In this document: positions 539 through 46,833 of the stretch, in pieces
How positions within the stretch are numbered: position 1 is the first letter of the stretch
How the letters are laid out: each line of letters begins with the position of its first letter
The notes under the pieces: model-generated
The model's database searches: none
What the model was told of the DNA's origin: nothing
Seen by the model: only the letters and a program-made list of their open reading frames with translations
Made by a program: the position numbers and the translations under genes
Assembly (NCBI GenBank): GCA_963707865.1
Contig: OY970175.1
Location: 144,748-208,747 of the forward strand
DNA from: an uncultured bacterium
GTDB lineage: Bacteria > Patescibacteriota > Minisyncoccia > UBA6257 > 2-01-FULL-56-20
Direction of reading: 5' to 3'
Length of the DNA stretch: 64,000 nt

Positions 539-2971
539 GTGCACAAAATTATGATAGATGAGAGGAAACAAACCATTCCTACCATTCTCGTGGTCTTGGG
601 CGCCACGGGCGACCTTATGGCGAAAAAGATCGTGCCGGCGCTTTTTAACTTGCATACAAAAAAACATCTGCCGCCAAAGTTCAAACTCGTAGGCGTTTCA
701 AGGCGCGCGTGGGGCGACGACGATCTCCGTATACACCTCCGCACCATTCTTAAAGAGAGGGTATCGCGCGCCTCCGCCGCAACCGTACGATCATTCCTTA
801 ATCTCGCCGTGTATCATCGGTTGGCATTTGATTCGCCAAAGGACTACCTAGCGCTCAACGATCTTTTGAGTAAAATTGACGACACGTGGGGTATGTGTGC
901 GAACAAACTTTTTTATCTTTCGGTCCCGCCGCAGTTTTACTCGCTCATCCTTGCCCATCTGCACCGCAGCCATCTGACCGACGGCTGCGGTCCGAACGAG
1001 GGATGGACGCGCGTGATCGTGGAAAAGCCGTTCGGCAACGACGAGAAGAGTGCGAAGGCGCTTGACGCCCAACTTGTAAAGCTCTTCCGTGAGGAACAAG
1101 TTTATCGGATAGACCATTACCTGGCAAAGGAGATGTTGCAGAATATTCTGATGTTCCGGTTCGCGAACGATCTTTTTGAAAGCGAATGGACAAGCCGCAC
1201 GATAGAGCGCGTGCATATCCGCCTGTTTGAGCAGATCGGCGCGGAGGGACGTGGCGCGTTCTACGACCATGTGGGCGCTCTGCAGGACGTGGGCCAGAAC
1301 CATCTTCTGCAAATGCTCGCGCTCATCGCCATGGAGCGGCCCGCGCGGTACGATGCCCACGCGATCCGCCCGCTCCGCGCGGAGCTTTTGAGGTGTCTTG
1401 CCATTCAGACGCCCCGTGAAGCTGCGAAGAACTCGTTCCGTGCGCAATACGACGGCTACCGCTCCGTGCAAGGGATTGGTCCCCGTTCAAAAATCGAAAC
1501 GTACTTTCGGATCAAGGGGTTCCTCTCCGGCGCGCGGTGGGAAGGGATGCCGATCGTCATGGAAAGCGGGAAGCGCCTCGGCGAGCCGCAGAAAGAGATT
1601 GAGATCGTGCTGCGCCACGAACAGCCCTGCCTTTGCGGAGGGAAGGAGCACCATCACAACCGTATTTTCATCAACCTTGAGCCCACGGAGGGGATCACGA
1701 TCAGGTTCCATTCAAAGAAGCCGGGACACACGTTTGAGTTTGAAGAGCGGACATTGAACTTTGACTTCCGGAAATCGATCCGTCGTGCGCAATATACCGA
1801 GGAGTATGAGAAGCTGATCTTGGACTGCATCGCGGGCGACCAGACGCTTTTTGTTTCAAGCGAGGAGATCGCCGCGACGTGGAAGTTCATAGACCCGTTC
1901 ATCATTGCGTGGAAAAAGAACTTGGTCCCGCTACGGCACTATGCGCCGGGCGGCCGTAAGATTGTCGCCGAATCGGCGGCGTTTGATGATGCGGTGGAAA
2001 AAGATGGGATCCTAGCGCTTCCAAAGGAAATAGGAGTTTTTGGGCTTGGGAAGATGGGCGCGAACGTGGCGCGGCAGCTGCGCGATAAAGGATGGCGCAT
2101 CATCGCGGCCAATCGCTCGCCCGAGCCCTTGCAACAATTGGAGGACGAAGATTTTGAAGCGGCGTATTCTCTCGCGGAACTTGTGGCGAAGCTCACGGTG
2201 CCGCGAAGACATTCGCCGCGCGTGATCTGGCTCATGATCACTGCCGGAAAAGGAGTGGACGAATTTCTCTTCGGGACTCGCGGTAAGGACGGCCTTGTAA
2301 AGCATCTCCAAAAAGGTGACATTGTGATAGACGCCGGCAATTCGTTTTTTGAAGACAGCATGCGGCGCGCGAAGCTACTCGGCAAACATGGCATCCGGTT
2401 CATGGACGTGGGTTTCTCGGGAGGCCCGCGCGGCGCGCGCTACGGCGGCTCGCTCATGGTCGGCGGCGACCAGAAAACGTTTGAATATTTAGAGCCGCTC
2501 TTTGCCGACCTCTCCGTGCCCTTGGGCTATGCGTATTTCGGCGATGCGGGCGCAGGCCATTTTGTGAAGATGGTTCACAATGGCATTGAGTACGGCATGA
2601 TGCAGTCCTTAGCGGAAGGTTTCGCGCTCATGAAAAAGTCCCCATTCAAATTAGATCTCGCAAAAGTGGCGCGCGTCTATAACCGCGGCAGTGTCATAGA
2701 GTCGCGTCTTGTCGGGTGGATGGAAGACGCGTTCCGCATTTATGGCAAGGAACTGCATGCGGTATCCGGCACGGTCGCCGCGACCGGCGAGGGTGAATGG
2801 ACCCTAAAGACCGGCCGCAAGTGGCGCGTGAAACTACCTGCAATAGAAGACGCATTCAAATTCCGCATGCGTTCGCAACGCGCGCCGAGCTATATGGGCC
2901 GAATCCTCTCTGCGCTCCGCAACCGCTTCGGTGGTCATGCAGTGGGGAAAAGAAATAAAACAAAAAAATGA
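539..2971 (+). CDS. zwf: Fused glucose-6-phosphate 1-dehydrogenase (N-terminal ~480 aa) and decarboxylating 6-phosphogluconate dehydrogenase, short YqeC/GndA type (C-terminal ~320 aa)
   Basis: N-terminal part has the G6PD fingerprints LVVLGATGDLMAKKIVPALFNL and RIDHYLAKEMLQNILMFRFAN. C-terminal part has the 6PGDH fingerprints GLGKMGANVARQL, IVIDAGNSFFEDS, GFSGGPRGARYGGSLMVGGD and GAGHFVKMVHNGIEYGMMQSLAEG. Single uninterrupted 810-aa ORF. Start could be ATG 539 or ATG 551. Confidence 0.85.
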   Translation: MHKIMIDERKQTIPTILVVLGATGDLMAKKIVPALFNLHTKKHLPPKFKLVGVSRRAWGDDDLRIHLRTILKERVSRASAATVRSFLNLAVYHRLAFDSPKDYLALNDLLSKIDDTWGMCANKLFYLSVPPQFYSLILAHLHRSHLTDGCGPNEGWTRVIVEKPFGNDEKSAKALDAQLVKLFREEQVYRIDHYLAKEMLQNILMFRFANDLFESEWTSRTIERVHIRLFEQIGAEGRGAFYDHVGALQDVGQNHLLQMLALIAMERPARYDAHAIRPLRAELLRCLAIQTPREAAKNSFRAQYDGYRSVQGIGPRSKIETYFRIKGFLSGARWEGMPIVMESGKRLGEPQKEIEIVLRHEQPCLCGGKEHHHNRIFINLEPTEGITIRFHSKKPGHTFEFEERTLNFDFRKSIRRAQYTEEYEKLILDCIAGDQTLFVSSEEIAATWKFIDPFIIAWKKNLVPLRHYAPGGRKIVAESAAFDDAVEKDGILALPKEIGVFGLGKMGANVARQLRDKGWRIIAANRSPEPLQQLEDEDFEAAYSLAELVAKLTVPRRHSPRVIWLMITAGKGVDEFLFGTRGKDGLVKHLQKGDIVIDAGNSFFEDSMRRAKLLGKHGIRFMDVGFSGGPRGARYGGSLMVGGDQKTFEYLEPLFADLSVPLGYAYFGDAGAGHFVKMVHNGIEYGMMQSLAEGFALMKKSPFKLDLAKVARVYNRGSVIESRLVGWMEDAFRIYGKELHAVSGTVAATGEGEWTLKTGRKWRVKLPAIEDAFKFRMRSQRAPSYMGRILSALRNRFGGHAVGKRNKTKK

Positions 2972-3636
2972 AAATCGTCGTGTTGCATGGTTGGGGAGAG
3001 GATAAAAGGTTTTGGGATACCTTCGCCGCTTCTTTTCGGAAAGGGGACGTTGTGGTATTTGATCTTCCCGGCTTTGGGAGTGAACCGAGCACGGTCCCGG
3101 ATTGGGGCATCCCGGAATACGCCGAATGGGTGAGATCAAAAATAGAAAGCATTCCTCCGGAGGGGAACGATATTGTACTTCTTGGTCACTCCTTCGGCGG
3201 AAGGATCGCAAGTTATATCGCGAGCCAGAGTCCCTATTGGCTTAAAGGACTGGTCCTCTATGCCGCGCCGTCCATACGGCGGCCTAAGCTTTCCATTCGC
3301 CTCAAGATTGCAGGTGCACACGTTTTGAAAGCATTTGGTGTTCGTGGGCGGGGGGGCAATCCGGAGCTGCGGGAGGCCGAGCAAAAAGGAATGGGAAAAC
3401 TTTTTCGGAAAGCGGTCTCCTTTGATCAAACCGCCCTCTTGAAGAAGATTAAAGTCCCCACACTCCTTCTCTGGGGAGAGAAAGATGCCGTGGTCCCCTT
3501 GAGTATTGCGCGCGAGATGCAGCGATTGATTCCAAAGAGCGAGCTCACGACGATAGAAAGGGCGGGGCACAGTGCCCATCTCAAAAATCCTCATTTGTTC
3601 TATGGCATCGTCAAACGTTTTATTGAAGGCCTTTAA
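2968..3636 (+). CDS. Alpha/beta-hydrolase fold protein, translationally coupled to zwf-gnd (ATGA overlap)
   Basis: GHSFGG nucleophile elbow, and a length and topology typical of small esterases/lipases. The start overlaps the upstream stop by 4 nt. Confidence 0.75.
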   Translation: MKIVVLHGWGEDKRFWDTFAASFRKGDVVVFDLPGFGSEPSTVPDWGIPEYAEWVRSKIESIPPEGNDIVLLGHSFGGRIASYIASQSPYWLKGLVLYAAPSIRRPKLSIRLKIAGAHVLKAFGVRGRGGNPELREAEQKGMGKLFRKAVSFDQTALLKKIKVPTLLLWGEKDAVVPLSIAREMQRLIPKSELTTIERAGHSAHLKNPHLFYGIVKRFIEGL

Positions 3637-4957
3637 TATCCTTTTTCCCTTCGGAGATTTTCTCTATATCCTCCAGCAGGAGGATTATAGCAGTCGTCGG
3701 TATTTAAAATGGCTGCCGCGGTTTTTTTTGCGGCGCAACATTCAGGCACGGGATCACCTGCGTTACACGACACGCGCCGGCGCAATCCTTGTGATCGCTC
3801 TTCTGCTTTGGCTTGCGTCGCTTGCGGGAGTGTTTTTCAACCAGTATGCTTGGTCCGCGTGGACGGTCGCGGCAATAGTGTGGTTGCTTGCGGTGCCGAT
3901 GTTCGTACTCGCAGCAAATATTGTTTCTATGCCGCTCTATCTGCCATTCAGGTACGCGCGTATACGCCGGGCCGCAGAAAAGGTGCGTGCGGTGAATGGC
4001 CTGCGCATTGTAACGATCGCGGGAAGTTTTGGTAAGACGACGACGAAGAATTTCCTGTACGAACTTGTGCGGCACCATGCGGCGGTCCAGATGATATCGG
4101 GAAATGTGAACACGCCATTAGGCATTGCGGGATGGATCATGGAACATCTGCGTTCCGATACGGAGATTTTGATCGCGGAGGTAGATGCCTATCGGGCGGG
4201 CGAGATCAGGGAAGGTTGCCGCATTGTGCCTGCCGATGTCGCCATTCTTACAAGCATCGGGCATCAACATATGGAACGTTTCGAGAGTGTTCCGCGCCTG
4301 GCCGCGGCGCTCGGTGAGGTTTTTACCTACGCGAAGCCGGGAGCAAAGTTGCTCGCACCGCCCGACGTTGCGCGCATGTTGGATCCTCTACTCGGCGGGC
4401 GACAAGCGATCGTGGTGAACAAGGAGGATATGACGGGTACGGGTTTGCACCTCTCGACATCAGCCCGTTCCGACCTTGCGCTTGCCGCACGGGCTGCGGA
4501 GCTCTTGGGCGCGCCGGAAAGATTTGTTAAAGATGCAGCCCAAAAGCTCACACTTCCCGACCGCCGCCAAAAGGCGACCGTGTGGCATGGCTACGATTGT
4601 ATTGATGATTCCTATAATATCAGTTTCCCGACCGCGCAGGCGGGAATCGCAGCCGTGGAATCGTTGGCGCGCGAAAAAGGAAAAAAGCTTCTTACGGTCA
4701 CCGCGGGGATTCCGGAGCTCGGACCGGCGGACAAGAACGGGAACGAACGCTTGGGAATGCTGCTTGCAGAAAAAGCCGATCACGTCGTGGTACTCAAAAG
4801 TATATTTGCGCAGGACATCGCCCTCGGCATTCCGGATCAAGAAAAATACACGGTCGTCACAAACCTCAATGCTTTTATTGAAATGGCCCCGAAGCGCTTT
4901 CCGCCGGAGCGGTGGGCGCTTTTACTGGAACCAGAACTCACCGACCTCTATTACTGA
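3572..4957 (+). CDS. Mur-ligase-family protein with an N-terminal multi-pass membrane domain (MurF/CapB-like)
   Basis: About 130 aa of hydrophobic helices, then the Mur ligase P-loop GSFGKTTTK and a central-domain-like block (DAYRAGE...ILTSIGHQHMERF). The true start may be an internal ATG near 3602, because the 5' end overlaps the upstream gene. Confidence 0.65.
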   Translation: MPISKILICSMASSNVLLKAFNILFPFGDFLYILQQEDYSSRRYLKWLPRFFLRRNIQARDHLRYTTRAGAILVIALLLWLASLAGVFFNQYAWSAWTVAAIVWLLAVPMFVLAANIVSMPLYLPFRYARIRRAAEKVRAVNGLRIVTIAGSFGKTTTKNFLYELVRHHAAVQMISGNVNTPLGIAGWIMEHLRSDTEILIAEVDAYRAGEIREGCRIVPADVAILTSIGHQHMERFESVPRLAAALGEVFTYAKPGAKLLAPPDVARMLDPLLGGRQAIVVNKEDMTGTGLHLSTSARSDLALAARAAELLGAPERFVKDAAQKLTLPDRRQKATVWHGYDCIDDSYNISFPTAQAGIAAVESLAREKGKKLLTVTAGIPELGPADKNGNERLGMLLAEKADHVVVLKSIFAQDIALGIPDQEKYTVVTNLNAFIEMAPKRFPPERWALLLEPELTDLYY

Positions 4958-42721: not shown

Positions 42722-43113
42722 AGAACCCGTGCGGAAATGACCGCTGTTTTACAACTGAATAGCAGTAGAGAGTTTTTTAGTTGTCCCAATTTATTCTTTT
42801 TTGGCAACGTTTTTGAGTGATCAAACAATGTTGCGTGGAATTCGTTCGAACCCCTCTATAGAGGGTTTGAATGAAAATTCAAATTCTTTTTAAAGAGGAT
42901 TTGATCCTGGTCCAGGATGAACGCTGGCGGCGTGGATAAGGCATGCAAGTCGAGCGCTTTATTTTTTGAAATTGTTTGCGATTACATCAAGAGCAGTGGA
43001 TGTTAATAAGGAGCGGCGAACGAGTTAGTAACACCTTGGTACGTACCTCAAAGACGGGCACAGCTCGCCGAAAGGCGGGGTAATTCCCGATATTGTCGCA
43101 AGACGAAAGTCGG

Positions 43114-43374
43114 TCCTCTCATTCAGATACTGTTTCGCTTTGGCGTAGCGAATTCTAACCAGATTCGCGACGCGAGGAGCGAAGTGTGCTGCATGTACAC
43201 GAGCGACGAGTAACAAAGAAGCTGGTTAGAATTCGCTACGCCCGAAGGGAAGCTAGCGAATAGCCGATTTCTTTGTCGCTCCTCCTCGAAGTGCACGTGC
43301 ACATCTTCGTCGTCGCTTCGCGAACTCGGCTATTCGCTAGCTTCCAAAGCTGAAACAGTATCTGAGTGAGAGGA
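43114..43374 (+). repeat. 261-nt highly self-complementary expansion segment inside the 16S V2 region
   Basis: Outer stem TCCTCTCATTCAGATACTGTTTC (43114-43136) pairs with GAAACAGTATCTGAGTGAGAGGA (43352-43374). Inner arms include the 19-bp pair CGTAGCGAATTCTAACCAG / CTGGTTAGAATTCGCTACG and the 20-bp pair GGAAGCTAGCGAATAGCCGA / TCGGCTATTCGCTAGCTTCC. No ORF. Confidence 0.6.
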
Positions 43375-44202
43375 CAGACGCTTTGAGATCGGCCTAGGCC
43401 CGATCAGCTAGTTGGTAAGGTAACGGCTTACCAAGGCTATGACCGGTAGGGGAGGTGAGAGCCTGACCCCCAACGACGAGACTGAGACACGGCTCGTACT
43501 CCTACGGGAGGCAGCAGTCAAGAACATTCGACAATGGGCGCAAGCCTGATCGAGCGACACCGCGTGCAGGATGAAGGCCTTCGGGTTGTAAACTGCGGTA
43601 ATATAGTAACAATGCAAATGAGTGCTATATGGAAAGAGGTGGGTAACTACGTGCCAGCACCAGCGGTAAAACGTAGACCTCGAGCGTTATCCGGATTTAT
43701 TGGGCGTAAAGAGCATGTAGGAGGTTTTGCGCGTCTTCTGTTAAAGCCCGGGGCCTAACCCCGGAAGTGCAGGAGATACGGCAGAACTAGAGGAGGTTAG
43801 AGGTGCATGGAACGCACGGTGTAGGGGTGAAATCCGTTGATATCGTGCGGAACACCAAAGGCGAAGGCAGTGCACTGGGACCTTCCTGACTCTGAGATGC
43901 GAAAGCGTGGGGAGCAAAAAGGATTAGATACCCTTGTAGTCCACGCCCTAAACGATGCCTGCTTGGTGTTTCGAGTATCGACCCTCGGAGTGCCGTAGCT
44001 AACGCGTTAAGCAGGCCGCCTGGGAAGTACGAGCGCAAGCTTAAAACTCAAAGGAATAGACGGGGACTCGCACAAGCGGTGGAACATGAGGTTTAATTCG
44101 ACAATAAGCGAGGAACCTTACCAGGGCTTGAAATTCTTGCTGACAGGTGTCCGAAAGGATGCCCTTCTCACAAGGACAGCAAGGACAGGTGTTGCATGGT
44201 TG

Positions 44203-44499
44203 ATTGAATCGACTCCTCTAGGGTCTAGAGGTAACACCCTTCAGTTCGTTCATGTTATGGACTGAAGAAAACTGGCTCATAACGGTGAAGTCCTATTTAA
44301 CAAAGAGTTAATCTTTGAAGAGTAGGATAATACCGTGGGAAGTGTGAACACTGAAATCAGCGTTCGCACCCCGTAGAGACTTTTTCCAAAAGGAAAAGAC
44401 GATAGCTTTTTAGTTGTCGTGAAACGCCAGCCCCAGCGTAATTTAAAAAATTACGGTTGGGTGAAGGTATAGTCCGTACCATTAGTAATAATGGAGTTA
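44203..44499 (+). other. ~297-nt insertion in the 16S between GCATGGTTG and TCGTCAGCTCGT (E. coli position ~1057); intron or expansion segment, no ORF
   Basis: The conserved flanks are contiguous in standard 16S sequences, and here they are separated by ~300 nt of non-rRNA-like sequence. A further ~50-nt extension lies at 44596-44655 in the helix-41 region. Confidence 0.5.
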
Positions 44500-45094
44500 T
44501 ATGGTCGTCAGCTCGTAGTTTGAACCGTTCCCTTAAGTGGGGTAACGAGCGCAACCCCTATCGAGTGTTACAAGTGTCACTCGGAACTGCCCAGCCCTGA
44601 GATGGAGAAAAAATTTCTTAGGTCAATTAGAAATTATTTCGCCTTTTCCGGGCTGGGAGGAAGGAGGGGATGACGTCAAATCCGCATGGCCCTTTGATGC
44701 CCTGGGCTACACTCGTGTTACAATGGCAGCGACAATGGGTCGCCAACCCGCAAGGGGGAGCTAATCCCATCAAACGTTGCCTCAGTTCGGATTGAGGGCT
44801 GCAACCTGCCCTCATGAAGCCGGAATCGCTAGTAATCGCGAATCAGCCACGTCGCGGTGAATACGTTCTCGAGTCCTGTACTCACTGCCCGTCACTGCAA
44901 GGAAGCCGGGAATATCTGAAATCTCCTTTTGGGGATAAGGGTAAGCTCGGTGACATGGCAGAAGTCGTAACAAGGCACGCGTAGCGGAAGCTGTGCGTGG
45001 ATCAATTAAACTAAGTCGATAACGCGCGGTTGCGCGTTAAGGTTGGGGCAACTAAAAAGCTCTTTGTGAATGTGATATAATAAGTATTACGAGC

Positions 45095-45469
45095 ATGCCG
45101 CAGGGAAAGAAAGTTATGGTGATTGAGGACGACAAATTCTTGTCTTCCTTGATCAAGGCGCGCCTTGAAAAGGACGGTTATACGATCATCCAGGCGTTTG
45201 ACGGCGATGAGGCGATCCAGTCTTTACGGAAAGAAAGGCCAGATCTCATTACTCTTGACCTTGTCATGCCGCGTGTGACCGGGTTTGAGGTACTGCAGGC
45301 GATCGCCATCACGCCGGGACTTGAAAAAATCCCCATCGTGATTCTTTCCAACCTCGCACAAGATTCGGATGTGGAAAAAGCGCGGCAGCTGGGTGCACAG
45401 GAATATTTCGTGAAAGTGAAAATTTCCATTGACGATCTTATCGGAAAAATAGAATCGTTGGCGCATTAA
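45095..45469 (+). CDS. Single-domain response regulator (CheY-like receiver)
   Basis: KVMVIEDDKF...D(54)LVMP...KIPIVILS...K pattern. 124 aa. TATAAT at 45077-45082. Confidence 0.8.
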   Translation: MPQGKKVMVIEDDKFLSSLIKARLEKDGYTIIQAFDGDEAIQSLRKERPDLITLDLVMPRVTGFEVLQAIAITPGLEKIPIVILSNLAQDSDVEKARQLGAQEYFVKVKISIDDLIGKIESLAH

Positions 45470-45470
45470 T

Positions 45471-45773
45471 ATGATTACAGAAGATATTATGAAAAAAATA
45501 AAGTCCGGAGCCAAGGTCCGGGTGTATGAAGGCAAAACCCCTTTTGAGGGGCTTGTGATCGCGCGCAAACACGGCGTGGAGCCGGGAGCGACCTTCACGG
45601 TCCGCACGATCGTTGCCGGAGTGGGCGTGGAGAAAGTTTATCCGCTGCATTCGCCCTCCATACAGAAAATACAGATTGTTTCCGGCCCGAAGAAAGTGCG
45701 GCGTTCCAAATTGTATTTTGTCCGTGGCATCTCCGGCGCGCGCATCCGGGCAAAGCTCGACGTGTCGGTGTGA
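45471..45773 (+). CDS. rplS: 50S ribosomal protein L19
   Basis: FEGLVIARKHG...TFTVRTIVAGVGVEKVYPLHSPSIQKIQIV...VRRSKLYFVRG matches L19 blocks. Confidence 0.9.
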   Translation: MITEDIMKKIKSGAKVRVYEGKTPFEGLVIARKHGVEPGATFTVRTIVAGVGVEKVYPLHSPSIQKIQIVSGPKKVRRSKLYFVRGISGARIRAKLDVSV

Positions 45774-45884
45774 TACGCACCTAAAACTTGTTCGCTCCTG
45801 CGGGGACGAAGTCGCTCACAGGCTCCGCAGCACTTAGAGCTTCTTTTTAATATTTATTTAATGTCTGCGTGCTAGGATGAGATC

Positions 45885-46541
45885 GTGAAACCACTCAGGA
45901 AGGTCAATGTCAGATGGTCGCCCGAATTCGCATATGCGATCGGGCTTTTGGTGACCGACGGGTGTTTATATTCTGACGGAAGGCATATCAACCTCACCTC
46001 AAAAGACGAGGAGCAGGTGAAGAATTTCATGAAATGTCTTGCCTTGGATAACAAAATCGGCAAGAAAAGCAGGGGAGGAGAATTGGAAAAGAAATATTTT
46101 GTAGTGCAGTTTGGAGACGTGTTATTTTATAAATTTCTTGGCTCTATTGGTGTCACTTCTCATAAATCAAAAACTTTAGGAGCAATCAAGGTACCGGATG
46201 AATTTTTTTTTGATTTTCTCAGGGGGCATTTTGACGGCGACGGAACTTTTTATTCCTATTGGGATCCGCGTTGGCGTTCGAGTTACATGTTTTACACTGT
46301 TTTTCTTTCAGCAAGCGGTTCTCATATTGCGTGGATCAGAACTGCGATTTTCAAAAAATTACATCTCAAGGGTTATATGACGGTAACAGGTAAAACTCCC
46401 ATGTATGAGGTAAAATATGCCAAGGCTGAATCATTGAAATTATTGCCGAAATTGTATTATAATGCCGATGTGGTTTGTTTGTCCCGCAAGCGAGAAAGGA
46501 TCGAGAAAGCACTTGCGATAGCGAACAAAACCTTGACATGA
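45885..46541 (+). CDS. LAGLIDADG-family homing endonuclease (two-motif, monomeric type), AT-rich
   Basis: Motif 1 YAIGLLVTDGCL and motif 2 LRGHFDGDGTF, spaced ~100 aa apart. GTG start. Lower GC than the flanks. Confidence 0.85.
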   Translation: MKPLRKVNVRWSPEFAYAIGLLVTDGCLYSDGRHINLTSKDEEQVKNFMKCLALDNKIGKKSRGGELEKKYFVVQFGDVLFYKFLGSIGVTSHKSKTLGAIKVPDEFFFDFLRGHFDGDGTFYSYWDPRWRSSYMFYTVFLSASGSHIAWIRTAIFKKLHLKGYMTVTGKTPMYEVKYAKAESLKLLPKLYYNADVVCLSRKRERIEKALAIANKTLT

Positions 46542-46543
46542 AC

Positions 46544-46627
46544 GCGCGGGTGTCGTAACGGTAGCCGAGCACGCTTGAGGTGCGTGTGCCGAAAGGCGTG
46601 GAGGTTCGAATCCTCTCCCGCGCACCA
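46544..46627 (+). tRNA. tRNA-Leu (anticodon GAG), class II with long variable arm, CCA encoded
   Basis: GCGCGGG acceptor pairing with CCCGCGC-A-CCA. Anticodon arm CACGC-TTGAGGT-GCGTG. Variable arm GCC-GAAA-GGC. T-arm GGAGG-TTCGAAT-CCTCT. Confidence 0.85.
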
Positions 46628-46833
46628 TAATCAAACTAGCAGGAATTTTCAAAATCAAAAATTCCTGCTAAAATAGGTGTAAGCGGTGTCGTAAATACTC
46701 ACACATAAAAAACAGAAAGGCTCCCAAACAGAGGATGTCCTTTCTGCGGGAGCCAGCGCGATCCCAGTTGAACACATCACTTAAATCTTTCGAAGACTGT
46801 TCGGGCCCGCGCACAAATTGGTATGATGAAAGA

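Follow-up and report, generated by a model that had tools for sequence, protein, structure and literature searches.

Results

The 16S rRNA gene and its 3' end

The window, that is, the whole 64-kb stretch of DNA analyzed here, belongs to a genome of ~0.9 Mb and contains one 16S rRNA gene (Rfam), with a receiver gene, rplS, a LAGLIDADG gene and a tRNA-Leu(GAG) gene downstream. The 16S rRNA gene (42889..45012, + strand; 2124 nt) matches the full bacterial model (RF00177, SSU_rRNA_bacteria, positions 1-1533; 1251.9 bits), and in a pairwise alignment it is 89.4% identical to the 16S gene of a relative, L004, from which it differs by three insertions (42971-42999, 43112-43372 and 44202-44503). Helix 45 is intact (CACGCGUAGC-GGAA-GCUGUGCGUG; 44976..44999, + strand), the GAUCA at 45000-45004 matches the model, and the posterior probabilities of the Rfam alignment are maximal across both. 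The 3' tail that follows is non-canonical: it reads AUUAAACU (45005..45012, + strand) opposite the anti-Shine-Dalgarno (anti-SD) sequence CCUCCUUU of the model. The gene has the helix 45 and the GGAUCA of a canonical bacterial 16S rRNA and lacks the CCUCC core of its tail, just as the first-pass annotation had observed, and an exact search of the whole 64-kb window found no CACCTCCTT.

The same tail is present in L002, L004, L006, L008, L165 and L166, relatives that were picked through their LAGLIDADG protein, independently of the tail. Moreover, a pattern scan returned the tail GAUCAAUUAAAC from 72 further species genomes, which come from many studies and are labelled Harrisonbacteria, Liptonbacteria, Paceibacterota and others; because the pattern itself required the tail, this count measures breadth and not conservation. 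Helix 45 is identical in 65 of the 72, and the six variant types depart from it at a few positions of the stem. Since the variant tail is common to related species, it is no sequencing error. Metagenomic rRNA genes are often mis-assembled, and the odd tail could in principle be an assembly artefact or a chimera of this contig; that reading is refuted by the identical tail in independent ENA, NCBI, JGI and Logan assemblies, from different species and with conserved flanking synteny, and we give it virtually no weight. Tsurumaki et al. (2022, PMC9297842) detected the anti-SD motif in just 48% of Parcubacteria, a Wolfebacteria tail reads GATTAATTAAATATT in a genome with ~2% SD genes (PMC10783764, tail in supplement), and CCUCC is missing in this part of Parcubacteria, complete genomes included (PMC9297842; PMC10783764). 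The loss of the 16S anti-SD is a lineage trait, largely already published, and for this reason the suggestion that this copy is unusual finds no support. The host is a Parcubacteria/Paceibacteria-type CPR bacterium, in the lineage of which a tail AUUAAAC(U) after GGAUCA replaces CCUCC, and the mature 16S would be expected to end in ...GGAUCAAUUAAAC.

Directly 3' of the tail, the sequence forms a hairpin (AACGCGC-GGUU-GCGCGUU; 45021..45038, + strand); in the downstream sequences of the 72 loci, the hairpin of the relatives differs in sequence and precedes a GTCGA motif. Between the 16S and the receiver gene, sequence comparison identifies a conserved 22-nt element (GGGGCAACTAAAAAGCTCTTTG; 45045..45066, + strand), nearly unchanged in L002, L004, L006, L020, L031, L044, L046, L064, L075, L079, L081 and L166. 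A predicted extended -10 promoter (TGaTATAAT; 45073..45081, + strand) lies 13 nt 5' of the ATG at 45095 of the receiver gene, which codes for a single-domain response regulator (45095..45469, + strand; Pfam Response_reg, 2.3e-22), and a homologous TATAAT is found 7 nt 5' of the receiver ATG in L004. The rplS gene, for ribosomal protein L19, comes next (45471..45773, + strand, with an alternative start at 45489; Pfam Ribosomal_L19, 1.4e-21), and the order 16S, receiver, rplS is kept in relatives.

Shine-Dalgarno motifs and translation starts

With crude gene calls (longest ORF, first start), SD 4-mers are found at 7 of 60 window starts (12%) and 5-mers at 4 of 60 (7%), values that equal background (10-12% and 5-6%, respectively); the identical pipeline applied to a 49-kb E. 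coli control gave 45% and 16%. SD motifs are also at background in three 20-kb relatives and in the 550 ORFs of the 72 loci (9%). Motifs of at least 6 nt at canonical spacing precede 4 of 59 window genes (starts 7906, 8887, 41736 and 53004), against ~1.6 genes expected from the control rate of 2.7%, and a mild excess of AGGAG (9 vs 2.9 expected) and GGAGG (8 vs 3.4) is seen upstream of 109 pooled starts. GGAGG-type pentamers are simply frequent in this sequence of 53% GC, at 402 sites in the window. The assertion that many genes use strong SDs is contradicted by these figures, and the paradox that the first-pass annotation built on it dissolves because this premise is wrong; a lineage-wide non-CCUCC tail together with compensating SD statistics, which the annotation itself had named as grounds for abandoning the paradox, is what we find, in agreement with the literature (PMC9297842; PMC10783764). 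Both the shared variant tail and the low SD fraction of the SD-scarce lineages without CCUCC are present here. The window genes would thus appear not to rely on SDs and, with the CCUCC anti-SD replaced, the ribosomes would be unable to form an SD helix.

A canonical anti-SD could lie elsewhere, either in a CCUCCUU exon beyond a 3'-terminal intron or intervening sequence or in a second, canonical 16S gene (GGAUCACCUCCUU/GGATCACCTCCTT), in which case some of the SD-like motifs would be functional. The four genes with long SD-like motifs at canonical spacing and the slight AGGAG/GGAGG excess are in line with this possibility, as are the three insertions in the window 16S, CPR rRNA genes being often insertion-bearing, and the window covers 64 kb of ~0.9 Mb. 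However, SD frequency is at background, CACCTCCTT is absent from the window and the published surveys find the motif missing from complete genomes as well. The specific proposal that a 3'-terminal intron displaces the anti-SD exon is rejected, since in relatives a hairpin comes directly after the tail, with a promoter and then the conserved genes for the receiver and rplS behind it, since CCTCCT is found within 300 nt 3' of the tail in only 2 of the 72 tail-sharing genomes (70 are without it), and since Rfam returned no intron match. We consider an anti-SD located elsewhere to be very improbable.

Among the 5-mers 5' of the 109 pooled starts, TATAA and ATAAT have the highest enrichment (z 11-13), and the profile by position has T at -12, A at -11 and T at -7. 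The spacing between the -10 box and the start, with promoters defined solely as consensus matches, peaks sharply at 6-8 nt (75 of 609 starts, the controls giving ~0.2-0.5 per 100 at each spacing), and the start codon is ATG in 66 of the 77 cases with a box so placed. TANNNT is found 4-9 nt upstream of 40% of window ORFs vs 7% in E. coli, and divergent gene pairs lie only 37-53 nt apart, with a -10 box for each gene. The -10 element at a fixed distance of ~6-8 nt from starts is the arrangement associated with leaderless initiation, and because a TATAAT-like box lies 6-8 nt 5' of so many ATGs, most mRNAs are probably leaderless, and transcription would begin at or beside the start codon; a leaderless mRNA is decoded through direct recognition of its 5'-terminal AUG. 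For the remaining genes, initiation may depend on short leaders rich in A or on coupling to the gene upstream.

Possibly, the tail AUUAAAC could serve as a replacement anti-SD that pairs with an A/U-rich, GUUUAAU-like motif upstream of starts. The tail is identical in the six relatives named above, and TTAAT, TTTAA and TAATT are overrepresented 5' of starts. These pentamers, however, are generic AT-rich words of the -10 box, and the complements that contain G are not enriched (GTTTA, 0 vs 1.2 expected; AATTG, 1 vs 2.7). Moreover, the signal fits TAnnnT at -12 to -7 and not the spacing of a ribosome-binding site, and leaderless mRNAs would offer no upstream RNA for pairing. We regard such a replacement as highly unlikely.

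The LAGLIDADG gene and the adjoining tRNA-Leu(GAG)

The LAGLIDADG gene (45885..46541, + strand) is a double-motif ORF of 218 aa with a GTG start (Pfam LAGLIDADG_3, its only match, 25.4 bits vs a cut-off of 22.5). A predicted extended -10-like element (TGcTAGGAT; 45870..45878, + strand) is found 6 nt 5' of the GTG, in a leaderless-type layout, and homologous elements (TAGGGT, TATGGT and TAGAAT) are found 6-7 nt 5' of the ATG in L004, L006 and L009. In two alignments (A1 and A2; 20 and 31 sequences), D25 and G26 of motif 1 (AIGLLVTDG; 45936..45962, + strand) and D117, G118, D119 and G120 of motif 2 (FLRGHFDGDG; 46215..46244, + strand) are invariant. The predicted fold (AlphaFold; pLDDT 89, pTM 0.88) has I-Tsp061I as its best Foldseek match (PDB 2DCH; E 3e-10, TM 0.67-0.71), followed by inteins, I-AniI, WhiA, I-DmoI and I-SceI; all 50 listed matches are of the LAGLIDADG fold, and 131 matches have E <= 0.001. 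The protein has the two acidic-ended motifs and the pseudo-dimeric alpha-beta-beta-alpha-beta-beta-alpha fold of monomeric double-motif LAGLIDADG enzymes. The family counts 4049 homologues, the best 120 of which are 61-83% identical, and nearly all the top named database matches bear the name "hypothetical protein". With a dN/dS of 0.07-0.11 among homologues, the gene is, by this measure, under strong purifying selection. The homologous gene lies ~8 GC points below its flanks in 43 of 43 related loci (flank >= 3 kb), and the GC of this putative homing endonuclease gene (HEG) tracks that of its host (rho 0.84).

The tRNA-Leu(GAG) gene (46544..46627, + strand; ARAGORN, and Rfam tRNA at 45.6 bits), with CCA encoded, follows the TGA of the ORF, which ends at 46541, after a gap of 2 nt, and in 71 of 71 metagenome loci with room the end of the ORF adjoins or overlaps a tRNA-Leu. 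A palindromic, terminator-like hairpin with a 16-bp stem (46636..46671) is found 3' of the tRNA. On this side of the locus the first-pass annotation, which had placed the receiver gene, rplS and an AT-rich, two-motif (GLLVTDG, HFDGDG) LAGLIDADG ORF downstream of the 16S on the same strand, with the ORF free of any host intron and ending just short of a complete tRNA-Leu(GAG), is upheld by the Pfam matches, the alignments, the GC of the homologues, ARAGORN and Rfam. The ORF has its own start and predicted promoter between rplS and the tRNA, and Rfam found no intron family at E <= 10 in 45000-46750, so that the intron or intein location usual for such genes is not what is seen. The LAGLIDADG puzzle looks to be resolved as a free-standing homing-endonuclease cassette at a fixed site and not an intron or intein passenger, and the gene itself appears to be a free-standing homing endonuclease not described before, always 5' of tRNA-Leu(GAG).

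The tRNA gene differs between loci with and without the HEG. Its segment from the D-loop to the anticodon stem reads GGTAGCCGAGCACGC in the window (46560..46574, + strand) and GGCAGACGCACTACC in the canonical form of HEG-less relatives. The canonical 15-mer is found in 17 of 19 HEG-less loci of the clade, in none of its 12 HEG-bearing loci, and in none of the 76 distinct HEG-bearing loci overall (Fisher p = 4e-5 for the association of allele and HEG, in a test that ignores phylogeny). Three loci break the pattern: L069 and L046 lack the HEG and carry variant alleles, and the remnant L047 has the canonical one. The segment 46560-46574 is a candidate for both the resistance and the target region. 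In addition, a predicted sigma-70-type promoter, TTGAAA-18 nt-TATAAT (46434..46463, + strand; 11/12 consensus match), is embedded in the 3' coding region of the ORF (codons L184 K185 ... Y192 N193), 80 nt upstream of the tRNA-Leu. Both hexamers are kept in 53 of 78 distinct homologues, and L184 is encoded by TTG in 54 of 77, vs 23% of Leu codons elsewhere; because the hexamers overlap conserved amino acids, this conservation is partly at the protein level. We propose that TTGAAA-18-TATAAT may be the promoter for tRNA-Leu.

Distribution of the HEG

The HEG lies immediately 5' of tRNA-Leu(GAG), usually with rplS upstream of it, and its presence is patchy: 12 occupied loci, 9 clean empty sites, in which rplS and tRNA-Leu are 89-215 nt apart, and 3 deletion remnants (L020, L047 and L046), all of which keep the embedded-promoter segment, are interleaved on the host tree. 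HEG and host are also incongruent. The host proteins of the window and of its closest relative, L031, are 91% identical and the HEGs 70%; the corresponding values are 79% and 82% for the window and L165, and 80% and 85% for L004 and L031. Overall, L19 and HEG identities correlate (rho 0.59). In the DNA comparison with L031, the divergent block (45815..46825, + strand) comprises the HEG, tRNA-Leu and the downstream spacer, and is a candidate exchanged cassette: most of the sequence upstream of 45815 is 85-100% identical (one 60-nt block, 68%), identity falls to 47-83% across the HEG and tRNA-Leu, with the spacer 3' of the tRNA largely unalignable, and is again mostly 80-97% from 46826 (one block, 70%). 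The presence/absence polymorphism with decay products and the incongruence of element and host are both as found for free-standing HEGs. Because HEG GC tracks host GC and dS is ~1 or more even in the most similar HEG pairs, any transfers would be old or between near relatives; long vertical residence with repeated loss is possible.

Discussion

The reading that we favor, and which we think probable, is that two independent features adjoin at this locus: a lineage that has lost its anti-SD and has leaderless mRNAs, and a free-standing HEG at tRNA-Leu(GAG) that forms an "intronless homing" cassette. For free-standing HEGs, intronless homing is an established route (PMC3984707). Here, the LAGLIDADG enzyme would act on genomes without the HEG, cleaving their canonical tRNA-Leu(GAG) gene in the region of the D-loop and anticodon stem, and repair from HEG-bearing DNA would copy the HEG along with the linked, diverged and structurally intact tRNA allele. 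The insertion parts the native promoter from the tRNA, and the cassette would therefore bring a replacement, the TTGAAA-18-TATAAT within its own 3' coding end. More tentatively, and with confidence somewhat short of even, we suggest that a very large, unannotated Patescibacteria LAGLIDADG family may behave as a gene drive directed at an essential tRNA, cutting the canonical gene and spreading a compensated, resistant allele with its promoter, while remnants persist as the tRNA promoter; this would be the first case of intronless homing by a chromosomal bacterial LAGLIDADG, and of a selfish element that diversifies a tRNA gene.

In a different scenario, the LAGLIDADG protein is not mobile but a domesticated host protein, a WhiA-like regulator or a maturase for rRNA insertions, inherited vertically at a fixed locus and repeatedly lost. 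The very strong purifying selection (dN/dS 0.07-0.11), the 61-83% identity among the best 120 of the 4049 homologues, the invariable position, the host-style promoter, a GC that follows that of the host, the overall positive correlation with L19 identity, and the presence of WhiA and the I-AniI/bI3 maturases among the fold matches can all be cited in its favor. However, many close relatives lack the gene and are mixed with carriers on the host tree, three deletion remnants are found and the incongruences between host and HEG are clear. Moreover, both catalytic Asp residues are invariant in a protein with no extra HTH domain, the gene shows no tie to 16S insertions (L004 has the gene and an insertion-free 16S of 1530 nt), and domestication leaves the association with the variant tRNA allele unexplained. 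We therefore consider domestication unlikely, at perhaps one chance in a few.

On the 16S side, what is new is a concrete proposal for initiation in CPR bacteria, in which promoters that abut start codons lead to leaderless mRNAs; gene-calling programs that favor SD motifs will set starts wrongly in these genomes. If the homing model is right, the HEG cassette may account for the unusually diverse tRNA-Leu(GAG) sequences of this group. A compact bacterial homing cassette would then combine a nuclease with a resistant allele of the tRNA and an embedded promoter, the family would be a natural source of new meganuclease specificities, with a ~20-bp target guessable from the tRNA-Leu gene, and the locus would indicate that homologous exchange of DNA is frequent among uncultured CPR bacteria.

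The closest counterparts of the 16S tail are in the Parcubacteria subgroup (PMC9297842) and the SD-scarce class iv (PMC10783764; Ca. Wolfebacteria GW2011_GWB1_47_1, GATTAATTAAATATT), which likewise have no CCUCC after helix 45 and SDs at a few per cent of genes, as a trait common to related species; the Wolfebacteria tail is homologous to that of the window (AAUUAAA). Neither study gives a mechanism for CPR initiation (PMC9297842; PMC10783764), whereas here the spacing from promoter to ATG points to leaderless mRNAs. The anti-SD is also gone in Nanoarchaeia (PMC10783764). As for the promoters, the leaderless-rich Mycobacterium, Deinococcus, Streptomyces and archaea likewise have the -10 box at a fixed 6-8 nt from the start, a preference for AUG and minimal divergent spacers. 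Mycobacterium, Deinococcus and Streptomyces retain a canonical anti-SD, and SDs serve their leadered genes; in the window lineage, unlike in these bacteria, the anti-SD itself is gone.

As for the LAGLIDADG protein, its best match by both sequence (E 4.5e-6) and fold is I-Tsp061I (2DCH), which with the I-DmoI group represents the monomeric double-motif endonucleases of archaeal rRNA introns and likewise has ~200-216 aa, two motifs and acidic catalytic residues; identity, however, is only ~20%, and the window ORF is bacterial and located outside an intron, between rplS and a tRNA gene. WhiA (DUF199), a domesticated LAGLIDADG transcription factor, has the same bipartite LAGLIDADG fold (3HYI, 8DY7) and is likewise chromosomal and conserved. 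WhiA has lost the catalytic residues, has a C-terminal HTH and is, as far as is known, universal in its lineages. In contrast, the window protein (218 aa) keeps both Asp residues, has no HTH and is patchy, which sets it apart from the WhiA type. In their genetics, the T4 Seg/Mob endonucleases and F-CphI come closest (PMC3984707; PMC6083498), as intergenic ORFs with their own expression signals, presence/absence polymorphism at one locus, apparent co-conversion of flanking markers and a linked variant of a conserved neighbor gene. The known free-standing cases of intronless homing are mainly phage enzymes of the GIY-YIG, HNH or Endo VII type (PMC3984707; PMC6083498). Unlike Seg/Mob and F-CphI, the window LAGLIDADG gene is chromosomal and bacterial, is tied to a tRNA and appears to provide the promoter of that tRNA.

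The 16S rRNA tail and its distribution

The 16S rRNA gene (42889-45012, + strand) is the only match to the Rfam bacterial SSU rRNA model and covers the whole of it (1251.9 bits). In the residue-level Rfam alignment the model is matched at helix 45 (44976-44999) and at the GAUCA that follows (45000-45004), but in the eight bases after that AUUAAACU stands in place of the model's CCUCCUUU; the mature 3' end would be ...GGAUCAAUUAAAC(U). The canonical anti-Shine-Dalgarno (anti-SD) word is GGATCACCTCCTT, and exact CACCTCCTT is absent from the whole 64-kb window. The covariance-model alignment and the window search thus confirm the first-pass annotation, which had described an intact helix 45 without the CCUCC tail.

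That the tail is conserved rests on six loci of relatives reached through the LAGLIDADG protein encoded downstream, and hence independently of the rRNA. These loci (L002, L004, L006/L007, L008, L165 and L166), from ENA, NCBI, JGI and Logan assemblies of different species, encode receiver and L19 proteins 73-79% identical to those of the window; in all six, the 16S gene terminates ...GCUGUGCGUG-GAUCAAUUAAACUA and the order 16S, receiver gene, rplS is retained, as it is across the clade sharing the tail (L002, L004, L006 and many of L012-L083). The same tail in independent assemblies of different species rules out an assembly artefact. When each GTDB species was represented by one genome, a pattern of universal sequence, unconstrained helix 45 and GATCAATTAAAC matched 72 genomes (Ca. 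Harrisonbacteria, Liptonbacteria, Paceibacterota, Parcubacteria, Minisyncoccia and others), a count that measures breadth and is no proof of conservation, since the tail is built into the pattern. Helix 45, free in the pattern, is identical in 65 of the 72, the remaining 7 having a few changes in the stem; past AAAC[U/A] the 72 sequences diverge into a hairpin and a GTCGA motif. CCTCCT occurs within 300 nt downstream of the tail in only two of these genomes, and this, together with the lack of CACCTCCTT in the window and of any Rfam intron, leads us to reject a 3'-terminal intron with a displaced anti-SD exon.

Nor is the loss new. An anti-SD motif was detected in only 48% of Parcubacteria, and in those without it SD helices are presumably not formed (Tsurumaki et al., 2022; PMC9297842). 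A 2024 survey (PMC10783764), which also names Campbellbacteria, SR1 and Peribacter, gives for Ca. Wolfebacteria GW2011_GWB1_47_1 the tail GATTAATTAAATATT, clearly homologous to that of the window's clade, and about 2% SD genes. Since the tail is found in the relatives reached by protein search, and two papers report the loss, both an assembly error and the earlier suggestion that this copy is unusual are excluded: that the anti-SD is missing is confirmed, but is known biology.

The surroundings of the 16S gene have features of their own. No 23S or 5S gene follows it; the receiver-domain gene and rplS lie directly downstream (window 45013-45095). Relative to the 1530-nt 16S of L004 it holds three insertions, at 42971-42999, 43112-43372 and 44202-44503 (29, 261 and 302 nt), none with a long ORF, which look like typical CPR rRNA insertion sequences; the 261-nt one is, by eye, a long inverted repeat and has a copy in the relative L078 (89% identity). 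Between the 16S 3' hairpin and the -10 box of the receiver gene lies a 22-nt element, GGGGCAACTAAAAAGCTCTTTG (45045-45066), nearly invariant in a dozen relatives within a spacer that is otherwise not conserved. Such conservation exceeds what a promoter spacer would need, and the element could be a processing or regulatory site.

Shine-Dalgarno usage and a probable leaderless architecture

The first-pass annotation had set the missing anti-SD against strong SD sequences before many genes. Counting does not bear out the latter. With ORFs called crudely (longest ORF, first start) and SD words sought 4-14 nt upstream, SD 4-mers precede 12% of the starts in the window and 5-mers 7%, equal to internal-ATG and random controls, whereas the identical pipeline returns 45% and 16% in 49 kb of E. 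coli K-12. The figures are 9% and 5% for 550 ORFs of 72 tail-sharing loci, and 2/22, 4/26 and 3/20 for the annotated genes of L002, L004 and L006, respectively; AGGAG and GGAGG are mildly over-represented upstream in the pooled start set. Because SD frequency is at background, the conflict between tail and SD usage disappears. When any candidate start within the first 30 codons was allowed and at least 6 nt of TAAGGAGGTGATC at canonical spacing were required, only four genes of the window passed, a number still compatible with chance (about 1.6 expected at the control rate of 2.7%). They are a ThiF-like gene (start 7906; AAGGAG-6-ATG), an acyltransferase-like gene (start 8887; GGGAGGTG-7-ATG), an EamA transporter gene (start 41736; AAAGGAGG-8-GTG) and a hypothetical gene (start 53004; ACGGAGGTG-3-ATG); the first two are adjacent, and Pfam places them on the + strand at 7.8-9.5 kb. 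The four are probably what the annotation had seen, and could reflect chance or be relics of acquired genes. Very probably, then, this is a lineage that has no anti-SD and does not use SDs.

Upstream of the genes, TATAA and ATAAT are the most enriched pentamers (z 11-13), and in the position profile T stands out at -12 and -7, and A at -11. Of 609 ORF starts, 34 follow a near-consensus TATAAT at a spacing of 6 nt, 16 at 7 nt and 25 at 8 nt (internal-ATG controls, about 0.2-0.5 per 100 at each spacing); where a hexamer lies 5-8 nt upstream (77 cases), 66 of the starts are ATG. Divergent gene pairs only 37, 43 and 53 nt apart (6098/6136, 24842/24886 and 18805/18859) each contain a pair of -10 boxes that face one another at 6-8 nt from their respective ATGs. 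Transcription would start at the AUG or beside it, and most mRNAs are probably leaderless; such starts would also account for the tolerated loss of the anti-SD. A replacement anti-SD role for the new tail was rejected: G-containing complementary words are not enriched upstream, and no enrichment diagnostic of pairing between the tail and upstream words was found in the pooled starts. In the much more distant Paceibacteria of the metagenome loci L084-L163 and of L009, which carry the LAGLIDADG gene and whose 16S tails were not seen, the SD frequency is likewise that of the background (9%) and -10 boxes adjoin the starts (31%), so that SD-independent initiation may extend beyond the AUUAAAC-tail clade. 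We found no description of leaderless initiation in CPR in the literature searched; the architecture is a plausible extension of the known loss of the anti-SD.

A free-standing LAGLIDADG gene at tRNA-Leu

Pfam matches and tRNA calls bear out the gene order reported earlier, all on the + strand: a single-domain receiver gene (45095-45469), rplS (45471-45773), a 218-aa LAGLIDADG ORF (45885-46541; Pfam LAGLIDADG_3) and, 2 nt after its stop, tRNA-Leu(GAG) (46544-46627). An Rfam scan of the whole window at the gathering threshold missed this tRNA, which a 1.75-kb scan recovers at 45.6 bits; the miss was a filter effect, so Rfam results without a hit need care. Rfam gave no group I intron or other structured RNA around the LAGLIDADG gene even at E <= 10, in agreement with the earlier remark that no host intron is evident. 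An extended -10-like TGcTAGGAT lies 6 nt upstream of the GTG start, a layout repeated in homologues.

At E <= 1e-3 a database search gives 4049 homologues of the protein; among the best 120, identity is 61-83% and length 214-271 aa, and few of them bear a source name, mostly 'hypothetical protein'. The motif aspartates D25 and D117/D119 are invariant in the homologue alignments. The closest PDB match of its AlphaFold model (pLDDT 89, pTM 0.88) is I-Tsp061I (2DCH), also the top sequence match, followed by intein endonucleases, I-AniI, WhiA, I-DmoI and I-SceI; as modelled, the product has the structure that defines the family. A WhiA-like domestication was rejected, as its defining features were not found. 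In L031, the closest relative of the window, the homing endonuclease gene (HEG; 4148-4792) likewise starts with GTG, and its motif 2 reads HLDGDD instead of HFDGDG (G120D); this copy may be an inactivated variant.

The 3' end of the HEG lies at tRNA-Leu in every context examined, close relatives included, and also in Ca. Staskawiczbacteria, whose L19 is only about 51% identical to that of the window. All 71 metagenome loci with sufficient room have tRNA-Leu at the HEG end (anticodon GAG in 70, AAG in one; offset -35 to +17 nt), and 59 of the 68 with room for it have L19 upstream on the same strand. Other genes occupy this site as well. L002 (9533-9922) and L006 (9524-9922) carry a second variable gene between rplS and the HEG (129-132 aa, good SD upstream, no Pfam family), and in L012, which has no HEG, the rplS-tRNA spacer is filled by a homologue of this gene (32% identity). 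The interval between rplS and tRNA-Leu is a hot spot of small accessory genes. In L008, an assembly whose HEG protein is that of L006, tRNA-Leu is abutted by a gene for a large serine recombinase (2206-3951, - strand; Resolvase/Recombinase/Zn_ribbon_recom); this suggests that the tRNA also serves another element as integration site.

Probable mobility of the gene and its association with tRNA alleles

Within the tail-sharing clade, 12 loci have a full HEG, nine are clean empty sites, in which rplS is followed by 89-215 nt (terminator and -10 box) and tRNA-Leu(GAG), and three (L020, L047 and L046) keep only the last 17-42 HEG codons directly before the tRNA. These states are interleaved on a neighbour-joining tree of receiver and L19 proteins, on which L002, with the HEG, pairs with the empty L022 at 88%. 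HEG similarity conflicts with host similarity: host proteins and HEG are 91% and 70% identical between the window and L031, 79% and 82% between the window and L165, and 80% and 85% between L004 and L031. Aligned as DNA, the window and L031 agree mostly at 85-100% up to about 45814 and at 47-83% over the HEG and tRNA-Leu; a largely unalignable spacer follows the tRNA, and from 46826, at recO, identity is mostly 80-97% again. L002 against L022 defines no exact insertion ends, the whole rplS-secD spacer being unalignable. There is thus evidence that the HEG is, or was recently, mobile. Against this stand the strong purifying selection (dN/dS 0.07-0.11), synonymous sites saturated even between the closest pairs, and a GC content that follows that of the host, though in all 43 of 43 loci it is lower by about 8 points; any exchange is therefore ancient or among near relatives. 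A domesticated host gene that is often lost is a rival reading, which we consider unlikely. A mobile homing cassette is the reading to which the distribution and the conflicting similarities point with reasonable confidence.

The state of the site is linked with the tRNA allele. Among HEG-less genomes of the clade, the 5' half of tRNA-Leu(GAG) is almost uniform, and 17 of 19 carry the 15-mer GGCAGACGCACTACC, which runs from D-loop to anticodon stem; it occurs in none of the 12 clade genomes with the HEG and in 0 of 76 distinct HEG-bearing loci overall, which have many different alleles, altered in the D-arm and anticodon stem (canonical GCGCGGGTGGCGAAATGGCAGACGCACTACCTTGAGGTGGTAGCG vs ...GTGTCGTAACGGTAGCCGAGCACGCTTGAGGTGCGTGTGC in the window). 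For clean empty sites against HEG-bearing loci, Fisher's test, which ignores phylogeny, gives p = 4e-5. This association would be expected if the HEG cut the canonical tRNA-Leu(GAG) gene and travelled together with a cleavage-resistant allele; tentatively, the tRNA gene may be the target.

In this region the sequence closest to a sigma-70 promoter, TTGAAA-18-TATAAT (46434-46463; 11/12 consensus), lies inside the 3' end of the HEG, 80 nt before the tRNA, its hexamers being codons L184-K185 and Y192-N193. Both hexamers are kept in 53 of 78 distinct homologues. L184 is encoded by TTG in 54 of 77, whereas TTG accounts for 23% of the other Leu codons in these genes; AAA and AAT codons are likewise favoured at the hexamer sites, and where residue 193 varies (N, D or H) the hexamer remains TAnnAT. 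The promoter segment is exactly what all three remnants keep. On balance these features favour a genuine promoter, and from the retained hexamers, the codon bias and the remnants the cassette appears to supply the promoter of the tRNA. Its insertion would have separated the tRNA from the native promoter, which the embedded one would replace.

Homing by free-standing endonucleases, or 'intronless homing', is an established category (PMC3984707), into which the LAGLIDADG gene described here fits; a paper on CPR rRNA insertions mentions no free-standing or tRNA-linked LAGLIDADG genes (PMC11270868). The gene departs from its own family in being neither intron- nor intein-borne. Three of its features are, to our knowledge, new among cases of intronless homing: the endonuclease is of the LAGLIDADG type and encoded on a bacterial chromosome, its site at tRNA-Leu(GAG) does not vary and is linked with variant alleles of that tRNA, and a putative promoter for the tRNA lies within the gene.
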